NCBI GenBank assembly: GCA_964012805.1
Contig: CAXGUD010000006.1
Coordinates: 64,001-128,000 of the forward strand
Reading direction: 5' to 3'
Length of the DNA: 64,000 nucleotides
Source: an uncultured Bacteriovoracaceae bacterium
Lineage (GTDB): Bacteria; Bdellovibrionota; Bacteriovoracia; Bacteriovoracales; Bacteriovoracaceae
The position numbers and the translations under genes are program-made. The notes under the pieces were generated by a model, which was not told where the DNA came from, made no database searches, and worked only from the letters and a program-made list of their open reading frames with translations. Positions 16,092 to 28,803 of the stretch are shown here, in pieces; position 1 is the first letter of the stretch, and each line of letters opens with the position of its first letter.

Positions 16092-16790
16092 TTAATTCTT
16101 ACTATCAGTCACAGCAGCAGCGTAAATGGCCATACCAAAGGCAATCTTGTTAACAAAGTCCGCTAGGTTATATACCAAATTCATTGTTCCAGCATCGGCC
16201 CCACTTCCTAGGTAACCGATGGCATAACCTATGGGATAGATTGCCCAACCAATAGTTACGATAAGCCTTAATGTATTAAATGCTTTTTGGCTAGAAGCAT
16301 TTCCGCTAGCGGCATTAACCTTACTAGCCTCTCCAGCGAAGATTTCGTAAATAATGTAAAGCCACCCTGCCATTCCTATGACAAAAGCAAGAGTTACATT
16401 CATTGCTTGGGTTTCTCCTAAATAACCCGCTACAAGCATTACTGTTGAGGAGACCAGCAGTCTCCAGAAAAGGCCTGATGCTACGGTCGTTACTGCAGCT
16501 AAGATCACATAAAATTCTACAATTTGAAGGGGGACAGTTATAAACCAATCGACATATCTAATTTCTGTTGGGGATTGTCCGCCAGTAAGCATCCATGCTT
16601 CTCTCATATAAAAATAATGCCAAGCTGCTATACCTGTTATCAAGCCTGCAATGGTCAGAGAAGTTTTCCACTTTTCTGAGACTCTGTCTCTTTCTAGAAA
16701 GAAGAAAGCTGTCGCCGCTACCATGGCCATGGAAATGACCCAAAAGGAAATAGCTACATGATCTCCTGATTTAAGAAGTAATTCTTTCAT
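16092..16790 (-). CDS. proteorhodopsin, DTE proton pump, Gln (blue-type) tuning residue
   Basis: 7 TM; WHY (H58); RYVDWFITVPLQIVEF (D81, T85, Q89, E92); NLADFVNK (D211, retinal K215). Confidence 0.97.
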   Translation of the reverse strand: MKELLLKSGDHVAISFWVISMAMVAATAFFFLERDRVSEKWKTSLTIAGLITGIAAWHYFYMREAWMLTGGQSPTEIRYVDWFITVPLQIVEFYVILAAVTTVASGLFWRLLVSSTVMLVAGYLGETQAMNVTLAFVIGMAGWLYIIYEIFAGEASKVNAASGNASSQKAFNTLRLIVTIGWAIYPIGYAIGYLGSGADAGTMNLVYNLADFVNKIAFGMAIYAAAVTDSKN

Positions 16791-18480: not shown

Positions 18481-19458
18481 TCAACTTTTTTTATAAGAGT
18501 TTATAAACTTCTCTATCCCTTCCATTGTGTTGACTTTTGGTTGATAGCCTAGGATTTTTTTTGCCTTTTTAATATTTAAAGTTTGGGATTTTGCAAAGAG
18601 ATTACAAGTGTACCTCGTTAGGACTGGCTCTTTGTTGTTAAGAAAAAATTTGTGTACAATTTCACTTAAAAAGCAATAAGCATAAACAAAGTGGTAAGAT
18701 ATGAGCTTAGGGTCTCTTTTAAGACCCAATTGATTGAAAACGTGATCAATAATATACCAAAGTTTTTGTGGATTACCATCTGAAATATTAAAAATCTGTC
18801 CATTGGCAATGTCTTTTGAGAAAAGTGCACACCTAATGGCCTCAACGGCGTTATCTATATAAGTAAGGTCAGTTAGGTTGTTACCTTTTCCAATAGTCCT
18901 CAATCGTCCTTTATTATTGGCCCTTATTAACCTTGGGAAAATGGCCTCATCTCCGGGGCCAATAATGGCCCTAGGCCTTAGAATAATGGCGTTGGGAAAG
19001 TTTTCTAAAACACTTTTTTCGGCTTTAATTTTTGATTCAATATAATCATTGAGTGGTCTAGTGGTAATGGGGTCACTTTCCTTGATATCCAATAAATCTT
19101 TTGAGCTATGGTAAACACTAGGGCTAGAAATCAAAATAAACTTTTTAATTTTGTATTTTTGGGCCAATTGGGCGAGGTTTGAAGACGCTTTATAATTAAC
19201 CTCTAAAAAATCTTTTCTTTTTCCCCAAGGAGAAGATAAACCACCGCAATGAACAATATGGTCAAAGCCATTCACAATACTTTCCATTTTTTTATAATCA
19301 GTTAAATCGGCTTTTAAAAAGTGGACGCCTTTATTTAAAAGTTCCCTTCCTTTTTTTTCATTCCTTCCTAGGCCACTTAAATGATTAAAGTCTTTTTTTA
19401 AAATTTCACAGGTTCTCTGTCCTAAAAAACCAGTCGCTCCAGTAACTAAAACTTTCAT
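18481..19458 (-). CDS. extended SDR, 3-beta-HSD/OleD-like NAD(P)-dependent reductase
   Basis: TGATGFLG, HCGGLSSPWG, SSPSVY, YIESK (YxxxK), LRPRAIIGPGD. Confidence 0.9.
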   Translation of the reverse strand: MKVLVTGATGFLGQRTCEILKKDFNHLSGLGRNEKKGRELLNKGVHFLKADLTDYKKMESIVNGFDHIVHCGGLSSPWGKRKDFLEVNYKASSNLAQLAQKYKIKKFILISSPSVYHSSKDLLDIKESDPITTRPLNDYIESKIKAEKSVLENFPNAIILRPRAIIGPGDEAIFPRLIRANNKGRLRTIGKGNNLTDLTYIDNAVEAIRCALFSKDIANGQIFNISDGNPQKLWYIIDHVFNQLGLKRDPKLISYHFVYAYCFLSEIVHKFFLNNKEPVLTRYTCNLFAKSQTLNIKKAKKILGYQPKVNTMEGIEKFINSYKKS

Positions 19459-19476: not shown

Positions 19477-21249
19477 TTAATTCTTTTTAATAAGAAAATT
19501 ATCAATAACCAAGTAGTCTAAATCCGTAGTAAGAAACGTTGTTAAGGCATCTTCTATAGAGTGAATAATAGGCCGTCCCATAACGTTAAGACTCGTGTTT
19601 ACCAAAATAGGTACTTTTGTTATTTGATAAAAATCTGAAATCAATTGGTGGTAAAGGGGATTTAACTCTTTATGCACAGATTGAAGCCTTCCACTTCCAT
19701 CTTTATGGACAACAGCTGGTACCAGTGACCTAACACTTTCTTTAAAGAAAAGGGCCTTTTCCATATAGGGGGTTTTAACATAATTTTTAAAATAATCTTG
19801 CCCAAATTCATGAAGAATCGAGGGGGCTATAGGCCTATAAAACTCTCTTCCTTTAATTCGTGAGTTAATTTTTTCCTTCATTTCTTTCTTTCTAGGATCC
19901 GCCAGTATGGAACGGTTTCCAAGGGCCCTTGGCCCAAATTCCGCCCTTCCCTGAACCCATCCTAAAATTTTTCCATTGGCCAAAAGGGTGGCCACCTTTT
20001 TAGTGAGTAAGTTTTTATTATCAAATTCTTGAAAATTAACTCCTCTGTAGTCTAAAATTTTTTTAAGGTAATCTATGTCTGGTTCGGACCCTAAATAGGG
20101 CGAGGAACCAAGAACTGGCCACTTTAAAGACCTTTTCATTTTATTAATATGATACTTTTGGTATAAAAGGGCACCCAAAGAGTTTCCATCATCACCTGGG
20201 GCAGAAGGTATGTGAATTTGATCAAACCCAGCCTCTTCCAAGATTCTTCCATTTGTTAAAGAATTAAGTGCGCAACCGCCTCCATAGGCTAGGTTCTTTT
20301 CACCAGTTTTCACTTGTAATTGGTTGGCCAATTCGATCACAGTATCTGAGAAGGCCTTTTGAAAGTTATAAGCAAGATCAGCGGATTTCAAAACGTCCTT
20401 ATCCGCCGGTTTTCTAAATCCGCCTACTATTTTATTGAGTTTTGCTTTGTCTCTAGGGCCAAAATTTGTTCTAAGTTTAATTCCCTTAACTTTCATTTTT
20501 TCTTTAAAAAAATAATAAATTTCTTGATTGAATTTTCCATAAGCACTGAGCCCCATAACTTTCCACTCTTCTCCATGCAGGCAGGAAAAACCGCAGCATT
20601 CTGTGACGGCCGCATAAAGATAACCCAAACTTGCCCTGCTTTTATAAATGAGTTTGAAGTTATTATTTTTAAAATGATAAAAAGAACAGGATATTTCTTC
20701 TCCTGCTCCATCGAGTATCATGACGGCACATTGATTAAAGGTGGATGTATAAACGGCATTGGCAGCATGGGTAAGGTGATGGGTTGTTTTTTTGTGAGAA
20801 ACTTTATGAAGATAATCCCCCCATAAAAACTTTCTTAATTGAAAAAGAACGACCGGTAAACCTTTTAAATACCAAGTTTGAGAATATCTTGCTAGGGCCG
20901 TAAATGACTGGCAATCATCAAATAAAAAAGGTCTTTTTTTATTAAAAAAGGCAACTCTTCTATAAATTGAGTTAAAAATTTTGGCAAGGCCTCTTATATA
21001 GAAGGGAGGTTTCCAGGTAGTTCTTAAGGTAAGTTCAACTGGATTTTCAATAGGAATTCCTCTTTCTTTTAAAGTTTTTTTTAGCCCTTTTAATGAATGG
21101 AGGTCTCCTACAGAAAAAAGAGACCGCTTATTTTGGGAAAGCCTTTCAAGTCCTTCAGCATAGATTTTATCTTTGTAGCAAACCGCTAAAGATGGGTCAT
21201 GAAAAGTATTGCTATGACCTATAATTACCTTATTAATTTCATATTTCAT
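19477..21249 (-). CDS. carbamoyltransferase (NodU/CmcH/TobZ family)
   Basis: FHDPS, HHLTHA, DGAGE, KVMGLSAYG, GGCALN, GDDG, EFGPRALGNRS, HKDGSGRLQ, NTSLN. Confidence 0.93.
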   Translation of the reverse strand: MKYEINKVIIGHSNTFHDPSLAVCYKDKIYAEGLERLSQNKRSLFSVGDLHSLKGLKKTLKERGIPIENPVELTLRTTWKPPFYIRGLAKIFNSIYRRVAFFNKKRPFLFDDCQSFTALARYSQTWYLKGLPVVLFQLRKFLWGDYLHKVSHKKTTHHLTHAANAVYTSTFNQCAVMILDGAGEEISCSFYHFKNNNFKLIYKSRASLGYLYAAVTECCGFSCLHGEEWKVMGLSAYGKFNQEIYYFFKEKMKVKGIKLRTNFGPRDKAKLNKIVGGFRKPADKDVLKSADLAYNFQKAFSDTVIELANQLQVKTGEKNLAYGGGCALNSLTNGRILEEAGFDQIHIPSAPGDDGNSLGALLYQKYHINKMKRSLKWPVLGSSPYLGSEPDIDYLKKILDYRGVNFQEFDNKNLLTKKVATLLANGKILGWVQGRAEFGPRALGNRSILADPRKKEMKEKINSRIKGREFYRPIAPSILHEFGQDYFKNYVKTPYMEKALFFKESVRSLVPAVVHKDGSGRLQSVHKELNPLYHQLISDFYQITKVPILVNTSLNVMGRPIIHSIEDALTTFLTTDLDYLVIDNFLIKKN

Positions 21250-21338: not shown

Positions 21339-21596
21339 ATGGTGATTATCGGAAAAATATTCCTGTCAATCTTATGGGCAGTTTCTTTTACTTTTGTTTT
21401 AACCAATCTTTCAATTAATTTTTCTCCTTTTTTAAATGAAAACCTTGCTTCTTTACTTGTCATTTTTTTTATTATTCACCTAATTCAGTACTTTATTTTC
21501 GTTAAAAAACTAAGAAGGGAGCCTTTTAGGGGATACCATTTCTTTCAAATCTTATTTTTTGGAATGGTTCACGTAAGAGGATATAAAAAAGAATAG
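21339..21596 (+). CDS. small membrane protein (DUF1145-like)
   Basis: GKIFLSILW...IHLIQ...QILFFG pattern; 2-3 TM segments. Confidence 0.55.
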   Translation: MVIIGKIFLSILWAVSFTFVLTNLSINFSPFLNENLASLLVIFFIIHLIQYFIFVKKLRREPFRGYHFFQILFFGMVHVRGYKKE

Positions 21597-21707: not shown

Positions 21708-22754
21708 ATGAAAATCGAAGCTGTGGCTTTGTCACTTCCTGAGCGGCAAATCTCTAATGATGATATCCTAGATTATATAAGAGAAAAAAGTAAAAACTCT
21801 TATAAGGGAGATTTAGAAAAATCTCTTCGGGAGGTAAAGTTTTTTCTTGGTCTTTGTGGTGCCCAAAATAGAAGGTGGGCGGCTCCCGGAGAAAACACGT
21901 TTAAAAAGCATACCGAAAAAGCCATTTTAGAGGTTTTAGAAAAGAGCAATACTCATCCGGAAGAAATTGATCTTCTGATTTATTCAAGTGTTGATAGGAA
22001 AGTTGCAGAGCCAAACGAAAGCTATCTACTAGCAAAAGCTTTAGGTTTGAAGAAAACCGAATGTTTTGACATTTTAGAAGCCTGTAATAGTTGGTCCAGG
22101 GCCACTCAAATTTCTCAAAGTTTATTAAAATCACCAGATTATAGAAAAGTCTTAGTTGTGACTGCTGAATACATGATTCATGAAGGAATGTGGGGACAGA
22201 ATGCCTTTCACGTAAAGTCTCCAGAAGAATTTGAATGGAAGTTCCCATCATATACATTAGGGGAAGGATCAACAGCCACTCTTCTCTCAAATGAAGGTGA
22301 AGATTGGAATTATAAATTCTTGGGAATGCCTGAGCATGCTGATTTGTGTATATGCCCTCTCGAAAATTTTAATGAACAAGAAACAAATATGAATGGTGTA
22401 AGTGTTGCTATGAATGGGAAAGGGGTATTTACTTCTTTTGGTAGAAAAATGGAGGTCCCAGGTAAAAAGGCCCTCATTGATATTTTAGATTCTTCAGCTG
22501 TTCCCCTCAAAGATATTGATATAATTTTCCCTCATTCTCACGCTAAAAAGGTTTGGAGTGATATTTCAAAGGAAGAAGAGTTAAATCTTCCGTTGTATTT
22601 TATTTTTCCAGAAACAGGAAACCTTGTGACAGGTTCAATTCCTGGAGCCATGAGTATGGCAATTGAGGAAAATGCGTTGAAAAGAAAAGACCTTGTAGCA
22701 GGCTGGATGGCCGCTGCCGGTATGTCCTTCTCTATGTACACTTTTAATTATTAA
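21708..22754 (+). CDS. 3-oxoacyl-ACP synthase III / OleA-like condensing enzyme
   Basis: Catalytic C126 (EACNS), H276 (FPHS), N305 (TGNL); SVDRKVAEP carries E101 at an OleA-like position; YTLGEG. Confidence 0.88.
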   Translation: MKIEAVALSLPERQISNDDILDYIREKSKNSYKGDLEKSLREVKFFLGLCGAQNRRWAAPGENTFKKHTEKAILEVLEKSNTHPEEIDLLIYSSVDRKVAEPNESYLLAKALGLKKTECFDILEACNSWSRATQISQSLLKSPDYRKVLVVTAEYMIHEGMWGQNAFHVKSPEEFEWKFPSYTLGEGSTATLLSNEGEDWNYKFLGMPEHADLCICPLENFNEQETNMNGVSVAMNGKGVFTSFGRKMEVPGKKALIDILDSSAVPLKDIDIIFPHSHAKKVWSDISKEEELNLPLYFIFPETGNLVTGSIPGAMSMAIEENALKRKDLVAGWMAAAGMSFSMYTFNY

Positions 22755-22770: not shown

Positions 22771-24117
22771 TTGGAAAATATAAACCTTGTAAAAATAAGA
22801 CCCTTTTGGAAAACAAGATCATCTATAAATGATCCTTTGTCTTTTTTTGAGGAAATTGATAAAAAAGGCGAGTTTTGTCATTATAAAGGGTTCCTCTCTT
22901 TTACCTATGTGGGTAATCCAAAATTAGTTAAACAGGTGCTGGATAAAACGGGAACTAATTATAATAAAGAAAACCCTCTTTATGACAGATTTAGATTCAT
23001 ACTAGGTCAGGGGATGCTAACGAGTGAGGGGAAAAATTGGAGGGATCAGAAAAAGTCTTTTTCTCCTTTCTTTTCCAAAAATAATATTAGTAAATTTCTT
23101 CCTATAATTTTTAGAAATATGTCCCAAACATTAGATATTTGGAACAAATATGCAGAAAAAGAGGTTGCTCTTAACCTTTCTGAAGAGTTCTTTAACCTAA
23201 CACTTAAAATTATAGGTGAAATTATTTTAAGCGATGACTTAAAAGAACATCTTCTGGAAATAAGAAAGATAACAAAAGTTTTTAATGAGTATGTTGCCTC
23301 TCCTCCCATTCCTATTTTTTCTTCATCAAAAATCCCAACTCCCCTTAATTTGAAAGTTAAAAAAGCGAGGGACGGTTTTATAGATATTTTAAAAAAAATT
23401 ATTGAAAAAAGAATGTCAACTAAACAGAAAAGAGAAGACCTCTTACAAATAATACTTGATAAGAACCCAGATAAAATTACTCCTTTAATTCTTGATCAAA
23501 TACTAAGCCTTATTATTGCTGGTCATGAAACGACTTCAAATGCACTTGTTTGGACTTTTTTTCACCTCTCCAAAAACACCTCTGAAAAAGATAAAATTCA
23601 AAAACTTTTAGATAGAGAGATTAAAGGTCTTTTTCCTTCTTTTAAAGAATTAGAACTCTTAGATTACTTAAGGCAAATTATAAATGAGTCTCTTAGACTA
23701 TCACCGCCCGTATGGCTTATAACGAGAAAGTCGATAAAAGAAAATATTTTAGGTGGACACAAAATTAAGCCTGGTCAAATGATTGTTTTTTCGCCCTACT
23801 TTATTCACAGAAATGAAAAGTATTGGAAAAATGCTGCTGATTTTAGACCTGATCGTTTTGATAAAAATAAAAAAATAGAAAAAGATGCTTTCTTGCCTTT
23901 TGGCTTAGGCCCACACACTTGTATAGGCTCAAATCTTTCTATGATGCAAATGAGTCTTTTTTTAAGTGTCTTATTAAAGTCATTTGACTGGTCTTGTATA
24001 GGATCTTTCCCAAAACCCTTTCTATCCTTCACAATGGGTGTGAAAGATGGACCTATGGTTATTTTAAAAAAGAGAAAAAGAGTAAAAAGTGTTTTTCCTG
24101 AAAAAATAACAATTTAA
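22771..24117 (+). CDS. cytochrome P450
   Basis: AGHETT, ESLR (ExxR), FRPDRF, FGLGPHTCIG (heme C384). Confidence 0.96.
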   Translation: MENINLVKIRPFWKTRSSINDPLSFFEEIDKKGEFCHYKGFLSFTYVGNPKLVKQVLDKTGTNYNKENPLYDRFRFILGQGMLTSEGKNWRDQKKSFSPFFSKNNISKFLPIIFRNMSQTLDIWNKYAEKEVALNLSEEFFNLTLKIIGEIILSDDLKEHLLEIRKITKVFNEYVASPPIPIFSSSKIPTPLNLKVKKARDGFIDILKKIIEKRMSTKQKREDLLQIILDKNPDKITPLILDQILSLIIAGHETTSNALVWTFFHLSKNTSEKDKIQKLLDREIKGLFPSFKELELLDYLRQIINESLRLSPPVWLITRKSIKENILGGHKIKPGQMIVFSPYFIHRNEKYWKNAADFRPDRFDKNKKIEKDAFLPFGLGPHTCIGSNLSMMQMSLFLSVLLKSFDWSCIGSFPKPFLSFTMGVKDGPMVILKKRKRVKSVFPEKITI

Positions 24118-24133
24118 CGGAGCTATAAGTTAA

Positions 24134-25270
24134 ATGAAAAAAGACTTGATTAAAAATACCTGGAATCTTTTTTTAATTTTAATGAACCCTAAAAGATTAT
24201 CTTTTAATGGAATGCCAACGGCGTATCCTAAAACAAGTAAATGGAACCTTTTTCAATGGTGGGCCTGCTTTTTAACAAGGCATTATTTTGGTAAAAATTT
24301 GTTAATTAAAACTCAGAAAAAAGTTGAAAACAAAATCCTTAAGGATTATAAAAAGCATGGTAAACCAAAAGGGTATATTACACCACCTCGTTTTAAAGCA
24401 AGCGAAATTGATTCAGAAAAATTCAAAGAGATTGCCATTAAGACAAATTCACCAGTTATTATTGAGGGTTTTGCAAAAGATTGGGATTGTACAAAAAAAT
24501 GGTCACCTCAGTTTTTAAAGGAAAACTATAAAGATGAAGTCGTCCCTGTTAGGCGTGAAAGTGACAGACTAGATTCTGAAGGCTATATTTATGTTAATAG
24601 GACTTTAAGTGAGCTAGTTGACAACATTGAAAGTGGAGGTGTTCTTCAGGGGACTCTCTTAGAAAATATTTTCAATAATAATCCTGAACTTAGAGAAGAT
24701 CTTAATATCCCTAAGATTGAAGAGTATTGTTGTCTTACAAAAAGACAAGAGCTTCAATCAACTCAATTATTTATTACTGGTAAAAATGGTAGAACTGGTC
24801 TCCATTGTGCTTCAGGAATCAACTTTTTTATTAATGTTTATGGCCATAAAAAGTGGACCTTTGTTCACCCTCACCATACGATAGGGTGTTATCCAGACGT
24901 TAGAGAAGATATGTTTTATTCAAATAGCGCACTTGATTATTGGAAGTCTGACGAAGAACTGGAAAAGGAGGGATATACCCTTTGGCCTTATATTCCAAAA
25001 TATAAATTTACGCTTTCCCCAGGCGACGTTGTCCTGTCACCACAGTGGTGGTGGCATGCTGTCGACAATGAAGACACAACCATAGCTGTTGCCAACAGAA
25101 CTTTTAATAAACTATTAATGGGTAATAAAATTTTTGCTTTTTTAAACTTTTTCTCACCGACCTCTTTAAGATGTTATTATCGTTTTTTAAAAACTGGGTG
25201 GGGATCTGATGATTCAATAATTGAAGTTTGTGAACATAATGGAAGAGAAGCAGTAGGAAAAGGAAAATAA
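24134..25270 (+). CDS. JmjC/cupin_8 Fe(II)/2-oxoglutarate enzyme with H-x-A iron motif
   Basis: PVIIEG...DW...KWS; TGLHCASGINFF (H224, A226, N230), GHKKW (K239), LSPGD..LSPQWWWHAV (H308). Confidence 0.88.
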   Translation: MKKDLIKNTWNLFLILMNPKRLSFNGMPTAYPKTSKWNLFQWWACFLTRHYFGKNLLIKTQKKVENKILKDYKKHGKPKGYITPPRFKASEIDSEKFKEIAIKTNSPVIIEGFAKDWDCTKKWSPQFLKENYKDEVVPVRRESDRLDSEGYIYVNRTLSELVDNIESGGVLQGTLLENIFNNNPELREDLNIPKIEEYCCLTKRQELQSTQLFITGKNGRTGLHCASGINFFINVYGHKKWTFVHPHHTIGCYPDVREDMFYSNSALDYWKSDEELEKEGYTLWPYIPKYKFTLSPGDVVLSPQWWWHAVDNEDTTIAVANRTFNKLLMGNKIFAFLNFFSPTSLRCYYRFLKTGWGSDDSIIEVCEHNGREAVGKGK

Positions 25271-25301
25271 ATAGGAATTACTAATCAACAAGGAAGTCTA
25301 C

Positions 25302-26114
25302 ATGGTATTAAAAAATTTAATGAAGGTGTCTCTATTAAGTTTTACATTAACCTCAAGTCTTTATGGGGCTATGAGTGACTTTAAAAATAAGTCAGGAAAA
25401 CAGATCGCTGAAATGTTAGAGAAAAAAAACCTAGTTTATAAAACAGAAACTTATGATTTAGAATTGAAATATTATCACGATGATAATAATCCTTTTAAAA
25501 TAGTAAAAGGAAAGGCCATTACACAAGAAACTGCCGGTGGAAAAGGTCAAGGAAAGGCCATGGTTACTTTAAATGACAAAACGAAAGTTTATGTTGAAAC
25601 TAGAAACGGTAAAGAAGATATTCACATGATTAAATTTCCGGGATCAAAAAGAAGTGTTTCTTTTTCTTGGAAAAATAGTAATTTTAGTAAATCTTCTAAA
25701 TTCTTAGGAAGTGAAGCGAGTGTTGAAGATCTTACTTGTCATATCCTATCAAATTATAAACACAAATTTAGAAAGTTTTCTCAGGGTGGAAAAGTGGCGA
25801 TCCTGGAATTTACTCCAAAAAGGAAAAGCTACTACACATCAAAAGTTTACTACATTGATACAGACAAGTTTGTTCCTATTGAAATTATTTACTATAAAGG
25901 AAGTACAAAGCTTAAATCAATGGCCGTAAAGGAATACAAAAAATATAAAGTTCCAGGAAGTAGTAAAACGGTATACCGCCCTCATAGATTAGAAATGAAA
26001 AATAATGAGTATCTAAGGAAAAACAAAAAAACACTAGAAACCCATATGGTTATTTCTAATAGAGTACTTAATGGAAAAGTGAACTCTTCAGACCTAAACC
26101 CTAATAAAATGTAA
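25302..26114 (+). CDS. outer-membrane lipoprotein-sorting protein (LolA-like)
   Basis: Signal peptide, FLGSEASVEDL motif, position directly before an MMPL gene (typical pairing). Confidence 0.75.
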   Translation: MVLKNLMKVSLLSFTLTSSLYGAMSDFKNKSGKQIAEMLEKKNLVYKTETYDLELKYYHDDNNPFKIVKGKAITQETAGGKGQGKAMVTLNDKTKVYVETRNGKEDIHMIKFPGSKRSVSFSWKNSNFSKSSKFLGSEASVEDLTCHILSNYKHKFRKFSQGGKVAILEFTPKRKSYYTSKVYYIDTDKFVPIEIIYYKGSTKLKSMAVKEYKKYKVPGSSKTVYRPHRLEMKNNEYLRKNKKTLETHMVISNRVLNGKVNSSDLNPNKM

Positions 26115-26123
26115 AAAGATTAA

Positions 26124-28427
26124 ATGGTAAAGTGGGGAGTATGGATGAAGAATTTCAATATCTTTAAAATACTCCCTACCTTTCTTATAAAATCAAATAA
26201 AATTTTATTTACTTTTTCCCTCCTAACCGTTTTTATTTTCAGTTTAGGGGTTTTTTCATTAAAAAAAGACATTTCTCATCGTATCTGGTTTAAAAAGGGA
26301 GACCCCTTTTTAAATAAATATGACTCCTTTATTGAAAATTATGGAAATGATGACCTCTTAGTTATTATTTTAGAAAATGAAAAAGGTCTTTTTACACCAA
26401 GTTATGCTAAAGAATTGTATCTTCTTACAAAAAAATTAGAAAATGTCCCTCTTGTTCTAAGAGCGGAGTCAATGGCCAACGTTTTGTTTTCCACCCATAG
26501 ACCTCTAGATCATTCTAATTATAAATCCTCTCATATTCATTTTGATCATTTCTTTCCAGACCTAAAGTCTTTAGACAGCGCCTTTTTGGAAGAACGTAAA
26601 AAGAAACTAAATATTGTTAAAAATTTCAGGGACTTTTATTTAAGCTCAAACTTTAAAACCTCCATCATTTATTTATATTTAAAGAAGGTTAACCCTCCCG
26701 ATTACCAACTGACATTAAAAAAAACAAAGGAAATTCTTAAAGCGACTCTATCGAAAGAAACACGTTTTTTTATGACGGGAAATTCTGTTTTGGCCGAAGC
26801 TTATAAAAAAGCTCCCGTTGATGATATGAAACTAATTATGCCTCTCGGCCTTTTTATCCTTATTACTTTACTTTTTTTTATATTTAGAAATTTCCTCGGC
26901 GTTTTCATACCGCTAGGCCACTTATTTCTTTTAATTTTTGCCCTTTTAGGAATTCAGGGGCATTTAAAAATGACTATGAACAGTGTGACTTCCATGGCCC
27001 CACTTATTTTGATGGCCATAGGTTTGCTTGATTCTATTCATCTCTTAACCACTTATTACAAATCAAGGATGAAAAAAAGTCGTCTTTGGGCCCTTTTGTG
27101 CGCTATTAAAATTAATATTTTCCCAACTTTTTTAACGTCATTTACTACCGCCATAGGTTTTTTTGCTCTTTCAACATCTAAAATAGCGCCTATATCAAAT
27201 TTGGGAACAATATGTGGCATAGGAGTTTTATTGGCGTGGCCTTTAACTTATTTTTTTATTCCTTTTGTTTTACTTAAATTCTCAAAAAAATCTAAACCAA
27301 AAAACATTATTCCTTTTAAGGCCAAGCTTTTCCTTCATTTAATTAAAAACAAGAAAAAAATTTTTTTATCGAGTTCTTTCATTCTTATCCTTTTGGGGGG
27401 GGGCTTTGCTTTTCAAAATGAAGTTAATTCGGATTTTGAAAATTATTTCCCAGAGAAAACCCCTTTTAGAGTGGCCAATCAAAAATTGGAAAAAAACATT
27501 GGTGGATCTTCAACAATCCATCTTCTTATTCAAAACGAAGATGTTAGAAATCCTAAATTTTTAAAAAAAATTGAAGATTTAACTTTAAAATTAGAAGATT
27601 TGAAAGGGGTAACAAAAGTTTTTTCACTTCTAGATATAATCAAAAATTCAAGACAACTTCTTTTTGAAAATGACGAAAAATATAACTCCCTTCCACCTGA
27701 TAAAGAGCAAATTAAGGAATCCCTCTTTTTTTATCAATTATATGAAATGGAAGGCAAAGAACTATACCGGTATGCTAAAAGAGATTTTAGTGAGATGAAA
27801 ATCACTCTCTTTTGGAAAGGTTTCAGCTCCAAAGAAATTAAAAGAGGGGTGAGAGAAATAGAGAAATTATTAAAATATTATAATTTAAAAGGGAGTCTTA
27901 ATGGTAAGGTCCTTTTTATGAAAGGCTTGGATTCTTATATATTAAAAACGTTTCTTATGTCCCTTATTTTAACTATAACTTGCCTTACCCTCTTAATGAT
28001 GATCCTTTTTAAATCATTTAGAATAGGTCTTTTTGCCATGGTTCCAAATGTCATTCCATTAACCTTAGGTGTGGCGGCTTTGGGTCTTTTTGGAAAAGGG
28101 CTTGATGTTTCTGCCGTTTTAATAGGCTCTATTAGCTTAGGTATTTCCGTGGATGACACCATCTTTTTCATGTCCCATTATTATAGAAAAACCAAAAAGT
28201 TCGAAAACCATTTGAAGGCGATCGAAGAAACGATTAAGGAAACAGGACACACGCTTTATATTACAACAATTACTTTAGCCTCTATAATTGGCCTTTTCAC
28301 TTTGGGTTCTTTTGGCCCCAATAAAGTCTTTGGTTTTATGACCTCCTTTATCCTTATTTGCGCCTTTCTTTTTGACTTAACACTACTTCCAATTCTTTTA
28401 TTAAAAAAAAGGGATTATCAGACGTAA
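26124..28427 (+). CDS. MMPL/RND family lipid exporter
   Basis: Two repeats of TM1, periplasmic domain and five TMs; AIGLLDSIH, TSFTTAIGF, GISVDDTIFF. Confidence 0.9.
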   Translation: MVKWGVWMKNFNIFKILPTFLIKSNKILFTFSLLTVFIFSLGVFSLKKDISHRIWFKKGDPFLNKYDSFIENYGNDDLLVIILENEKGLFTPSYAKELYLLTKKLENVPLVLRAESMANVLFSTHRPLDHSNYKSSHIHFDHFFPDLKSLDSAFLEERKKKLNIVKNFRDFYLSSNFKTSIIYLYLKKVNPPDYQLTLKKTKEILKATLSKETRFFMTGNSVLAEAYKKAPVDDMKLIMPLGLFILITLLFFIFRNFLGVFIPLGHLFLLIFALLGIQGHLKMTMNSVTSMAPLILMAIGLLDSIHLLTTYYKSRMKKSRLWALLCAIKINIFPTFLTSFTTAIGFFALSTSKIAPISNLGTICGIGVLLAWPLTYFFIPFVLLKFSKKSKPKNIIPFKAKLFLHLIKNKKKIFLSSSFILILLGGGFAFQNEVNSDFENYFPEKTPFRVANQKLEKNIGGSSTIHLLIQNEDVRNPKFLKKIEDLTLKLEDLKGVTKVFSLLDIIKNSRQLLFENDEKYNSLPPDKEQIKESLFFYQLYEMEGKELYRYAKRDFSEMKITLFWKGFSSKEIKRGVREIEKLLKYYNLKGSLNGKVLFMKGLDSYILKTFLMSLILTITCLTLLMMILFKSFRIGLFAMVPNVIPLTLGVAALGLFGKGLDVSAVLIGSISLGISVDDTIFFMSHYYRKTKKFENHLKAIEETIKETGHTLYITTITLASIIGLFTLGSFGPNKVFGFMTSFILICAFLFDLTLLPILLLKKRDYQT

Positions 28428-28803
28428 GATAATGTAAGGGAAAACATCTTAATGAGAAATGATTTTAACTTCTTGTTTAAGTTATCTAAAAATTTTTTGA
28501 TATTCAATTAATTGAAGAAAGGTTTACAAATTTAAATGAATCATTTGCAATTGGTTATAGGTGGATTGATTTTTCAAATACCTATAAGAAATCAAAGCTT
28601 TTAACTTCGCTCCATATATTTAATACAAACCCAAATATTTTTTGGACTATTTTAAACCAAAAAGCCGACTATATTAAGCTTTTAGCGTATGCAAATGGAT
28701 CCTACCGCTCTGTGAGAAAAGCCGAGAAAGTCGATGGTTAAAGAAAAAAAAGAATACAAAAATTTATTATTCAATTCAAAAAAAAAGTCTAGATTTTTAT
28801 ATA

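Follow-up and report, generated by a model that had tools for sequence, protein, structure and literature searches.

A putative Fe(II)/2OG-dependent radical halogenase of the Cupin_8/JmjC fold, distantly related to OocP, in a lipid-type operon of an uncultured Bacteriovoracaceae bacterium

A window of 64,000 nucleotides (the whole stretch of DNA analysed here) from an uncultured Bacteriovoracaceae bacterium encodes a Cupin_8/JmjC protein, hereafter the window protein, that combines two His with an Ala where Asp or Glu is expected, i.e. the halogenase-type iron motif. It is probably a Fe(II)/2OG radical halogenase (chlorinase) of the wider OocP family, and we consider the chances about even that it acts as such on a carrier-free lipid predicted from its operon; action on the cluster product is deduced from operon position only. 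Halogenation chemistry in the JmjC fold is already known from OocP, and what differs here is the lipid-operon context. The first-pass annotation of this DNA had proposed a JmjC halogenase as a novelty. The halogenase reading was strengthened by the finding that the nearest solved relative, OocP, is a characterised halogenase, whereas the novelty was lost because OocP is itself a Cupin_8/JmjC protein. The features discussed are compiled in Table 1.

Table 1. Features of the window, with positions counted from its first nucleotide
Feature	Position	Strand	Basis or remark
Cupin_8/JmjC protein, HxA family, putative Fe(II)/2OG radical halogenase	24134..25270	+	378 aa; distant OocP relative
H224-C225-A226: proximal His, Ala replacing Asp ligand	24803..24811	+	alignment
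T221, N230, K239: match JMJD5 2OG-binding positions	24794..24850	+	alignment to JMJD5
H308, distal iron ligand (predicted)	25055..25057	+	present in 230/230 family rows
R322, family-specific Arg common to OocP; Trp in JMJD5	25097..25099	+	alignment
KSIII/thiolase-fold condensing enzyme, OleA-like	21708..22754	+	Glu101-Pro102, Cys126, His276, Asn305 invariant in 39 homologues
Cytochrome P450	22771..24117	+	Pfam
LolA-like (PF17131) periplasmic protein	25302..26114	+	Pfam
MMPL/HAE3-type RND transporter	26124..28427	+	Pfam, NCBIfam
NodU/CmcH-type carbamoyltransferase	19477..21249	-	divergent from operon
3-beta-HSD/OleD-like reductase	18481..19458	-	best NCBIfam OleD, E 8e-56, far below cut-off
Decayed 3' remnant of second Cupin_8 gene	28493..28735	+	5' part deleted, distal His lost

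Fold and active-site residues of the window protein

Pfam analysis of the window protein gave matches to Cupin_8 (E 4e-25) and JmjC (E 4e-6); NCBIfam has no model for it or for four homologues. In agreement, a double-stranded beta-helix fold is present in the AlphaFold model (pLDDT 91), which matches JMJD5, OocP and FIH. The canonical HxD/E...H facial triad of JmjC/Cupin_8 hydroxylases is absent, and H224-C-A226...H308 is found instead, with HCA aligned to H-Q-D of JMJD5 (phmmer). The residues H224-C-A226, N230, K239 and H308 were found as placed by the first-pass annotation, with codons starting at 24803 (H224, CAT), 24806 (C225, TGT), 24809 (A226, GCT), 24821 (N230), 24848 (K239) and 25055 (H308). 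By equivalence to the JMJD5 residues, T221, N230 and K239 presumably function in 2OG binding. The family Tyr position, which we take to be a 2OG ligand in JMJD5, corresponds to Leu171/Gln172 in the window protein (Tyr in 196 of 230 rows of this column); the earlier statement that the 2OG-binding residues are intact thus holds for T221, N230 and K239 but not for the Tyr. By alignment, Q211, F213, A320 and R322 neighbour the open site, and none of them provides a carboxylate.

The H-C-A gene is single-copy in the genome, the other full-length JmjC match being distant. The A226 codon was covered with no differences by contigs from two other marine runs (X5, 23643-26017; X6, 24476-25376), neither of them flagged as a possible source of the stretch, and a sequencing error was ruled out by these independent contigs. 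Comparison with a 96%-identical metagenome copy yielded a dN/dS of 0.034 for the cupin gene, and of 0.026, 0.033 and 0.138 for the neighbouring KSIII, LolA-like and P450 genes, respectively. This value shows purifying selection on the cupin gene, which presumably has a function, though not necessarily a catalytic one. Contigs of an RNA run covering 24779-26088 come from a slightly different strain and are no proof of transcription.

Conservation of the motif and kinship with OocP

All 18 homologues from the first search carried H-C-A/T/S, as did the closest set of 19 rows including the query, which contained no Asp or Glu at the ligand position. In an alignment of 169 proteins, composed of the query, 18 homologues and, out of 1890 representatives, the best 150, position 226 was Ala in 142, Thr in 8, Gly in 5, Glu in 5, Asp in 4, Ser in 2 and Asn in 1, with gaps in 2. 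Conservation of HxA in the homologues, which the first-pass annotation had named as a check, was thereby confirmed (Asp/Glu in 9 of 169), and a lone mutation was ruled out. The motif was also found in 59 of 61 matches from 52 genome loci, with Asp/Glu in none. For a family set of 230 rows, fragments and nine HxD outgroup rows were left out, and some near-duplicate rows are included; both His and K239 were invariant in this set, N230 and R322 were each present in 220 rows, and position 226 was Ala/Gly in 193. None of the nine HxD outgroup rows had Arg at the R322 position, five of them being gapped there.

A search of the PDB with the family profile gave 8A82, titled 'Fe(II)/aKG-dependent halogenase OocPQ', as best match (E 2e-54, 188 bits, versus 154 bits for JMJD5); the profile alignment placed its HQG on HCA and its Arg on R322. 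With a single query, JMJD5 (67 bits) ranked above 8A82 (59 bits), and the window protein is 25.6% identical to OocP (246 aa aligned), a value that some HxD cupins exceed. Foldseek with the AlphaFold model listed 8A82 20th by E-value, with the highest query TM-score (0.68) among the rows listed. In VIA-align, 8A82 was the top row (Z 28.9, rmsd 2.9, 318 residues over 24-356; JMJD5: Z 27.9, rmsd 1.8, 232 residues), a marginal lead of 1 Z unit, with the extra aligned length of OocP made up by a helical extension. Both this N-terminal extension and an Arg at the position of JMJD5 Trp414 are OocP-family features present in the window protein. OocP (UniProt K7WEY7) is a Cupin_8/JmjC protein (PF13621) and the only characterised family member found; the earlier assertion that no JmjC halogenase had been characterised is thus incorrect, and the window protein cannot be the first.

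OocP is described as a trans-acting Fe(II)/aKG halogenase that chlorinates in vivo during chain elongation as a heterodimer with OocQ (PMC11260071); it contains a cupin-like domain, and its deletion is reported to abolish bioactivity (PMC4552970). The 2026 atlas of putative radical halogenases by Kipouros and Chang lists 946 proteins with 105 PF13621 rows (PMC13489965). Its cluster 2 comprises about 93 Cupin_8 entries including oocP (K7WEY7, PDB 8A82), as estimated from rows 1-18, 89-93 and several between in the source data of Fig. 1c, where the 94th row opens another cluster (PMC13489965). The terms 'JmjC' and 'OocP' are absent from the main text of the atlas (PMC13489965), and the place of the window protein in cluster 2 is deduced via OocP. 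Since OocP is a characterised Cupin_8/JmjC protein and is grouped in this atlas, HxA JmjC proteins have already been predicted as halogenases. A literature search, outside of which most subscription journals lay, retrieved no paper on an HCA-type or carrier-free family member.

Four OocP orthologues were recovered from 401 enterobacterial genomes, one differing from 8A82 at 8 of 389 residues and another flanked by an ACP gene, oocQ and two PKS-sized ORFs. In a FastTree phylogeny of 239 rows, OocP grouped with an HCA clade of trans-AT PKS clusters (0.987), and the window protein fell into a 36-row clade (1.0) with Flavobacteriaceae HCA proteins and a Thr (HCT/HAT) sub-clade. IQ-TREE analysis of 64 of these rows, rooted on eight HxD cupins, united OocP with the window protein in a clade of 46 rows (SH-aLRT 97) that excluded the eight HxD Cupin_8 proteins; this is a quick tree with the simple LG+G4 model and long outgroup branches. 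A constraint placing OocP with the HxD rows was rejected at p-AU 0.027, again under a simple model with long outgroup branches. The window protein and OocP thus share a common descent apart from the HxD cupins, within an HxA/G family in the wide sense. As OocP is nested in this family, the motif of the window protein has no origin separate from that of OocP. A 30%-identity single-linkage network, tried as a membership test, joined the window protein to OocP in two steps and was set aside because it also pulled in 2-5 of the nine HxD outgroup rows. A tblastn search with one OocQ query, which could miss a diverged partner, retrieved nothing up to an E of 1 from the genome (4.47 Mb), and no PKS or ACP was found beside the cupin gene in 17-29.5 kb. 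The window protein is therefore not an OocP orthologue; it works, if anything, like OocP without being one.

Operon context, proposed reaction and alternative readings

The cupin gene sits between the P450 and the LolA-like/MMPL export genes in an operon of five genes (KSIII-P450-cupin-LolA-like-MMPL) with intergenic gaps of 16, 16, 31 and 9 bp. Promoter and terminator scans remained at shuffle level (31 versus 29.2 and 4 versus 5.7, respectively). The carbamoyltransferase and the 3-beta-HSD/OleD-like reductase genes are divergent from the operon; the closest congener copy of the reductase (58%) adjoins a different KSIII, so its tie to the operon is positional only. The KSIII residues given in Table 1 were present in every one of the 39 rows aligned, out of 48 matches, and the Glu-Pro aligns with the EP of the other OleA-like gene of the genome. 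Glu-Pro is described as the OleA signature (general-base motif), and beta-lactones are given as the likely products of oleACD clusters that include P450 and glycosyltransferase genes (PMC7064751). No NCBIfam model reached its cut-off for the KSIII; in JGI, 3 of the 48 homologues are named acyl-CoA:acyl-CoA alkyltransferase.

Further genes of the window and the genome are of note as separate observations. The cupin remnant (28430-28750) matches, with 69% over 81 aa, an intact H-N-G cupin gene that follows the MMPL orthologue of congener G001; the remnant lacks about 830 bp of the 5' part, and the locus formerly had two carboxylate-less cupins. A hydrophobic 85-aa ORF between the divergent operons (21339-21593, +) had no Pfam match and was not an ACP by scan. 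A microbial rhodopsin gene (16092-16790, -; Pfam Bac_rhodopsin, E 9e-48) is in keeping with a surface-ocean organism. Elsewhere in the genome (G000 C5:105457-110236), KSIII, alpha/beta-hydrolase, AMP-ligase and reductase genes form a separate cluster that is read, from gene order and similarity, as a putative oleABCD and might provide the ligase that the window's cluster lacks. Four further carbamoyltransferase matches are present in the genome.

Radical halogenase chemistry of the SyrB2/BesD/OocP type is established and forms the basis of the steps proposed here. H224, H308 and 2OG would bind Fe(II), and chloride, which should be plentiful because the stretch was found in marine metagenomes, would occupy the site opened by A226. 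Reaction with O2 would give a Cl-Fe(IV)=O species that may abstract H from an unactivated C-H bond, and the chlorine would then be passed to the substrate radical. R322 may serve as a second-sphere residue that either steers the halide/oxo or anchors a substrate carboxylate. Judged from the context, the OleA-like enzyme would join two acyl-CoAs head to head, and reductase, P450 and carbamoyltransferase would tailor the condensation product; the window cupin would chlorinate the chain of this OleA-type lipid before MMPL and the LolA-like protein carry it out. As the operon contains neither OleC nor an ACP, the lipid substrate is a guess.

The main rival to this reading, in our view rather unlikely, is a two-His, non-halogenating 2OG oxygenase (hydroxylase, desaturase or epoxidase), with the iron coordination completed by water or by a carboxylate of the substrate that R322 would hold in place. 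AspH, with two protein ligands, is described as hydroxylating without halogenase activity, and FIH D201G as catalytically viable (both PMC6817910); according to the peer-review file of the atlas, its authors had taken out two-His hydroxylases of a known class, regarded as false positives (PMC13489965). Within the family, Thr/Ser variants are found among the closest relatives of the window protein, including a 23-row clade with Thr at position 226, which is no halogenase signature; HxD/E members keeping the Arg also occur (8 of 18 D/E rows), with HTD in 5 of 34 rows, and the family has a very wide distribution, with members in 44 of the 238 genomes of the class. On the other side, its sole characterised member found is a halogenase, Ala/Gly is kept in the large majority of rows, and the P450 of the operon is already available for hydroxylation. 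It also appears improbable that the window protein halogenates another substrate, be it an acyl chain that comes from fatty-acid synthesis and is still tethered to ACP or CoA ahead of condensation, or a lipid (a sterol, for instance) taken from host or prey. The window's cluster lacks an ACP gene, a Planktothrix triterpene-cyclase query had no match in the genome, and the cupin gene is embedded between P450 and exporter. In favour of this alternative, free ACPs accompany OocP and the trans-AT PKS clade (an ACP query matched 10 of the 52 genome loci), and in Planktothrix sterol-type genes surround an HCA cupin, among them a carbamoyltransferase that shares 43% identity with the one in the window.

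The first-pass annotation had also considered a pseudo-enzyme and Cys225 ligation, both of which were weakened. Loss of both the Asp ligand and the family Tyr speaks for a non-catalytic or weakly active cupin that binds lipid or 2OG as carrier or scaffold; this is very improbable given that conservation of the two His, of Lys239, Asn230 and Arg322 ranges from 220 to all 230 rows and that dN/dS is low, even if selection indicates function rather than catalysis. A role of Cys225 as third iron ligand instead of Asp is scarcely credible: Cys is invariant in the 19 closest rows and found in 166 of 230 family rows, but 64 rows lack it, and OocP has Gln there. Moreover, residue 225 lies in the middle of strand E220-226 and by beta-strand alternation would face away from His224/Ala226. 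The preferred reading is thus still the radical halogenase of the wider OocP family.

Loci of relatives and comparison with known systems

Of the 238 genomes of the class, one contained the KSIII type of the window; one class relative of the cupin (in G503) is an orphan without biosynthetic neighbours. Among 80 metagenome loci with a related KSIII, many of them on short contigs, the cupin was present only in two near-copies of the window cluster, which makes it an optional tailoring gene; AMP-ligase and reductase genes occurred in three. Flavobacteriaceae M23B6Z8 independently links KSIII (35%), P450, AMP-ligase, 3-beta-HSD, HCA cupin (33%) and glycosyltransferase. Of the 52 genome loci, 16 match the ketosynthase query, 8 carry MMPL, and genes of ThiF, PLP-lyase or heme-oxygenase-like type are present in 8-10, in most cases alongside the Thr variant. 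Acyl or lipid substrates appear to be a common theme of these loci. The cupin had no match in a phage collection, and one relative was found in viral contigs.

Several types of cluster recur among the relatives. Cupins with Thr at the Asp position (HCT/HAT; L001-L017, e.g. L005, L007, L009) accompany genes for a FeeM-like acyltransferase, ThiF, PLP beta-lyase, heme-oxygenase-like oxidase, GST, MAPEG, dienelactone hydrolase and MMPL/LolA/DUF1302 in Pseudomonas, Nostoc, Microcystis, Massilia, planctomycetes and myxobacteria. An HCANELN clade (L022-L026, L028, L031, L032, L035, L051) resides in trans-AT PKS clusters, usually beside a free ACP, of Xenorhabdus, Photorhabdus, Aquimarina, Ketobacter and others; as it is sister to OocP, further halogenation modules are likely. 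Literature searches for FeeM/ThiF clusters and trans-AT cupin halogenases found nothing relevant. A Planktothrix agardhii plasmid (L140, NZ_LR882940.1, 3145-25711) carries an HCA cupin in a sterol/triterpene-type cluster with triterpene cyclase, squalene synthase, several P450s, Rieske, ERG4/24, EBP and the carbamoyltransferase mentioned above, and is a candidate source of a chlorinated, carbamoylated steroid in a cyanobacterium. In a Phormidesmis MAG (L021, 3-11557), an HCA cupin gene is followed by a sulfotransferase gene, with divergent PUFA-synthase-like PKS genes, an arrangement that, speculatively, fits a chlorosulfolipid-type product. Some loci (L040, L043, L047, L048, L049, L050) have two or three HxA cupin genes arranged in tandem or at short distance, separated in L048 by a fatty-acid hydroxylase/desaturase gene, which suggests that one lipid is modified several times. 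In the window's class, HTD members keeping the Arg (L168, L175-L177, L180) and HME members (L185, L190, L193) are possible reversions to a carboxylate ligand and would be natural controls.

A wider reading is tentative and on the doubtful side: the HCA branch of the JmjC fold may be a large family of carrier-free lipid halogenases. As one joint proposal of the same doubtful standing, the window protein would place chlorine on the long alkyl chain of a carbamoylated lipid of OleA type that leaves through the MMPL system, sister enzymes from sterol-type, PUFA-synthase/sulfotransferase and N-acyl-amino-acid clusters would do the same to free sterols and fatty lipids, and OocP would be a PKS-recruited offshoot of the branch. 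Such a family would provide candidate enzymes for chlorolipids and chlorosteroids, for whose biosynthesis we know of no explanation. If the window protein is a halogenase, OocP-type chemistry would extend from one PKS-bound polyketide to free lipids, a chlorinated carbamoyl-lipid would be expected from an abundant marine bacterium, and a single-chain biocatalyst for long-chain C-H chlorination may be at hand, with no OocQ-type partner in sight. Because the family is broad, with mixed Ala/Gly/Thr/Ser/Asp/Glu at one ligand position and a shared Arg, it is a natural test set for the question of what, besides loss of the carboxylate, decides between halogenation and hydroxylation.

Among known systems, OocP from the oocydin trans-AT PKS of Serratia plymuthica shares with the window protein the Cupin_8/JmjC fold, the N-terminal helical extension, two His unaccompanied by a carboxylate ligand, a Lys corresponding to K239, an Arg corresponding to R322, and the same wider clade. 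The two differ in motif (HQG versus HCA, at about 25% identity) and in setting, as OocP acts on a PKS-bound chain with its partner OocQ, whereas the window protein is encoded in an OleA-like lipid operon without PKS, ACP or OocQ. The listed entries of atlas cluster 2 resemble the window protein in family (PF13621), length (about 300-450 aa) and 2His-1Ala/Gly site, and include 355-aa Photorhabdus proteins of the size found in L035; they were predicted from AlphaFold models, and the enzymes tested in the same paper, AspX and BtnX, belong to another cluster (PMC13489965). SyrB2, CurA-Hal, WelO5, BesD, AspX and BtnX have the same 2His-1Ala/Gly iron site and the predicted chemistry but stem from other cupin branches, and the family profile, which matched 47 PDB sequences, retrieved none of them. 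The core barrels of JMJD5/KDM8 and FIH superpose on the window protein with matching His, Asn, Lys and Ser/Thr positions; these enzymes differ by HxD, by a Trp at the R322 position and in having no N- and C-terminal helices. At the level of gene clusters, the oleACD beta-lactone clusters, such as OleA-GT-OleC-P450-OleD of Actinoplanes atraurantiacus, likewise have no oleB as described and share with the window an OleA-like Glu-Pro condensing enzyme, a 3-beta-HSD reductase and a P450 (PMC7064751), whereas the window cluster does without OleC and adds a carbamoyltransferase, the HxA cupin and the MMPL/LolA-like export pair.
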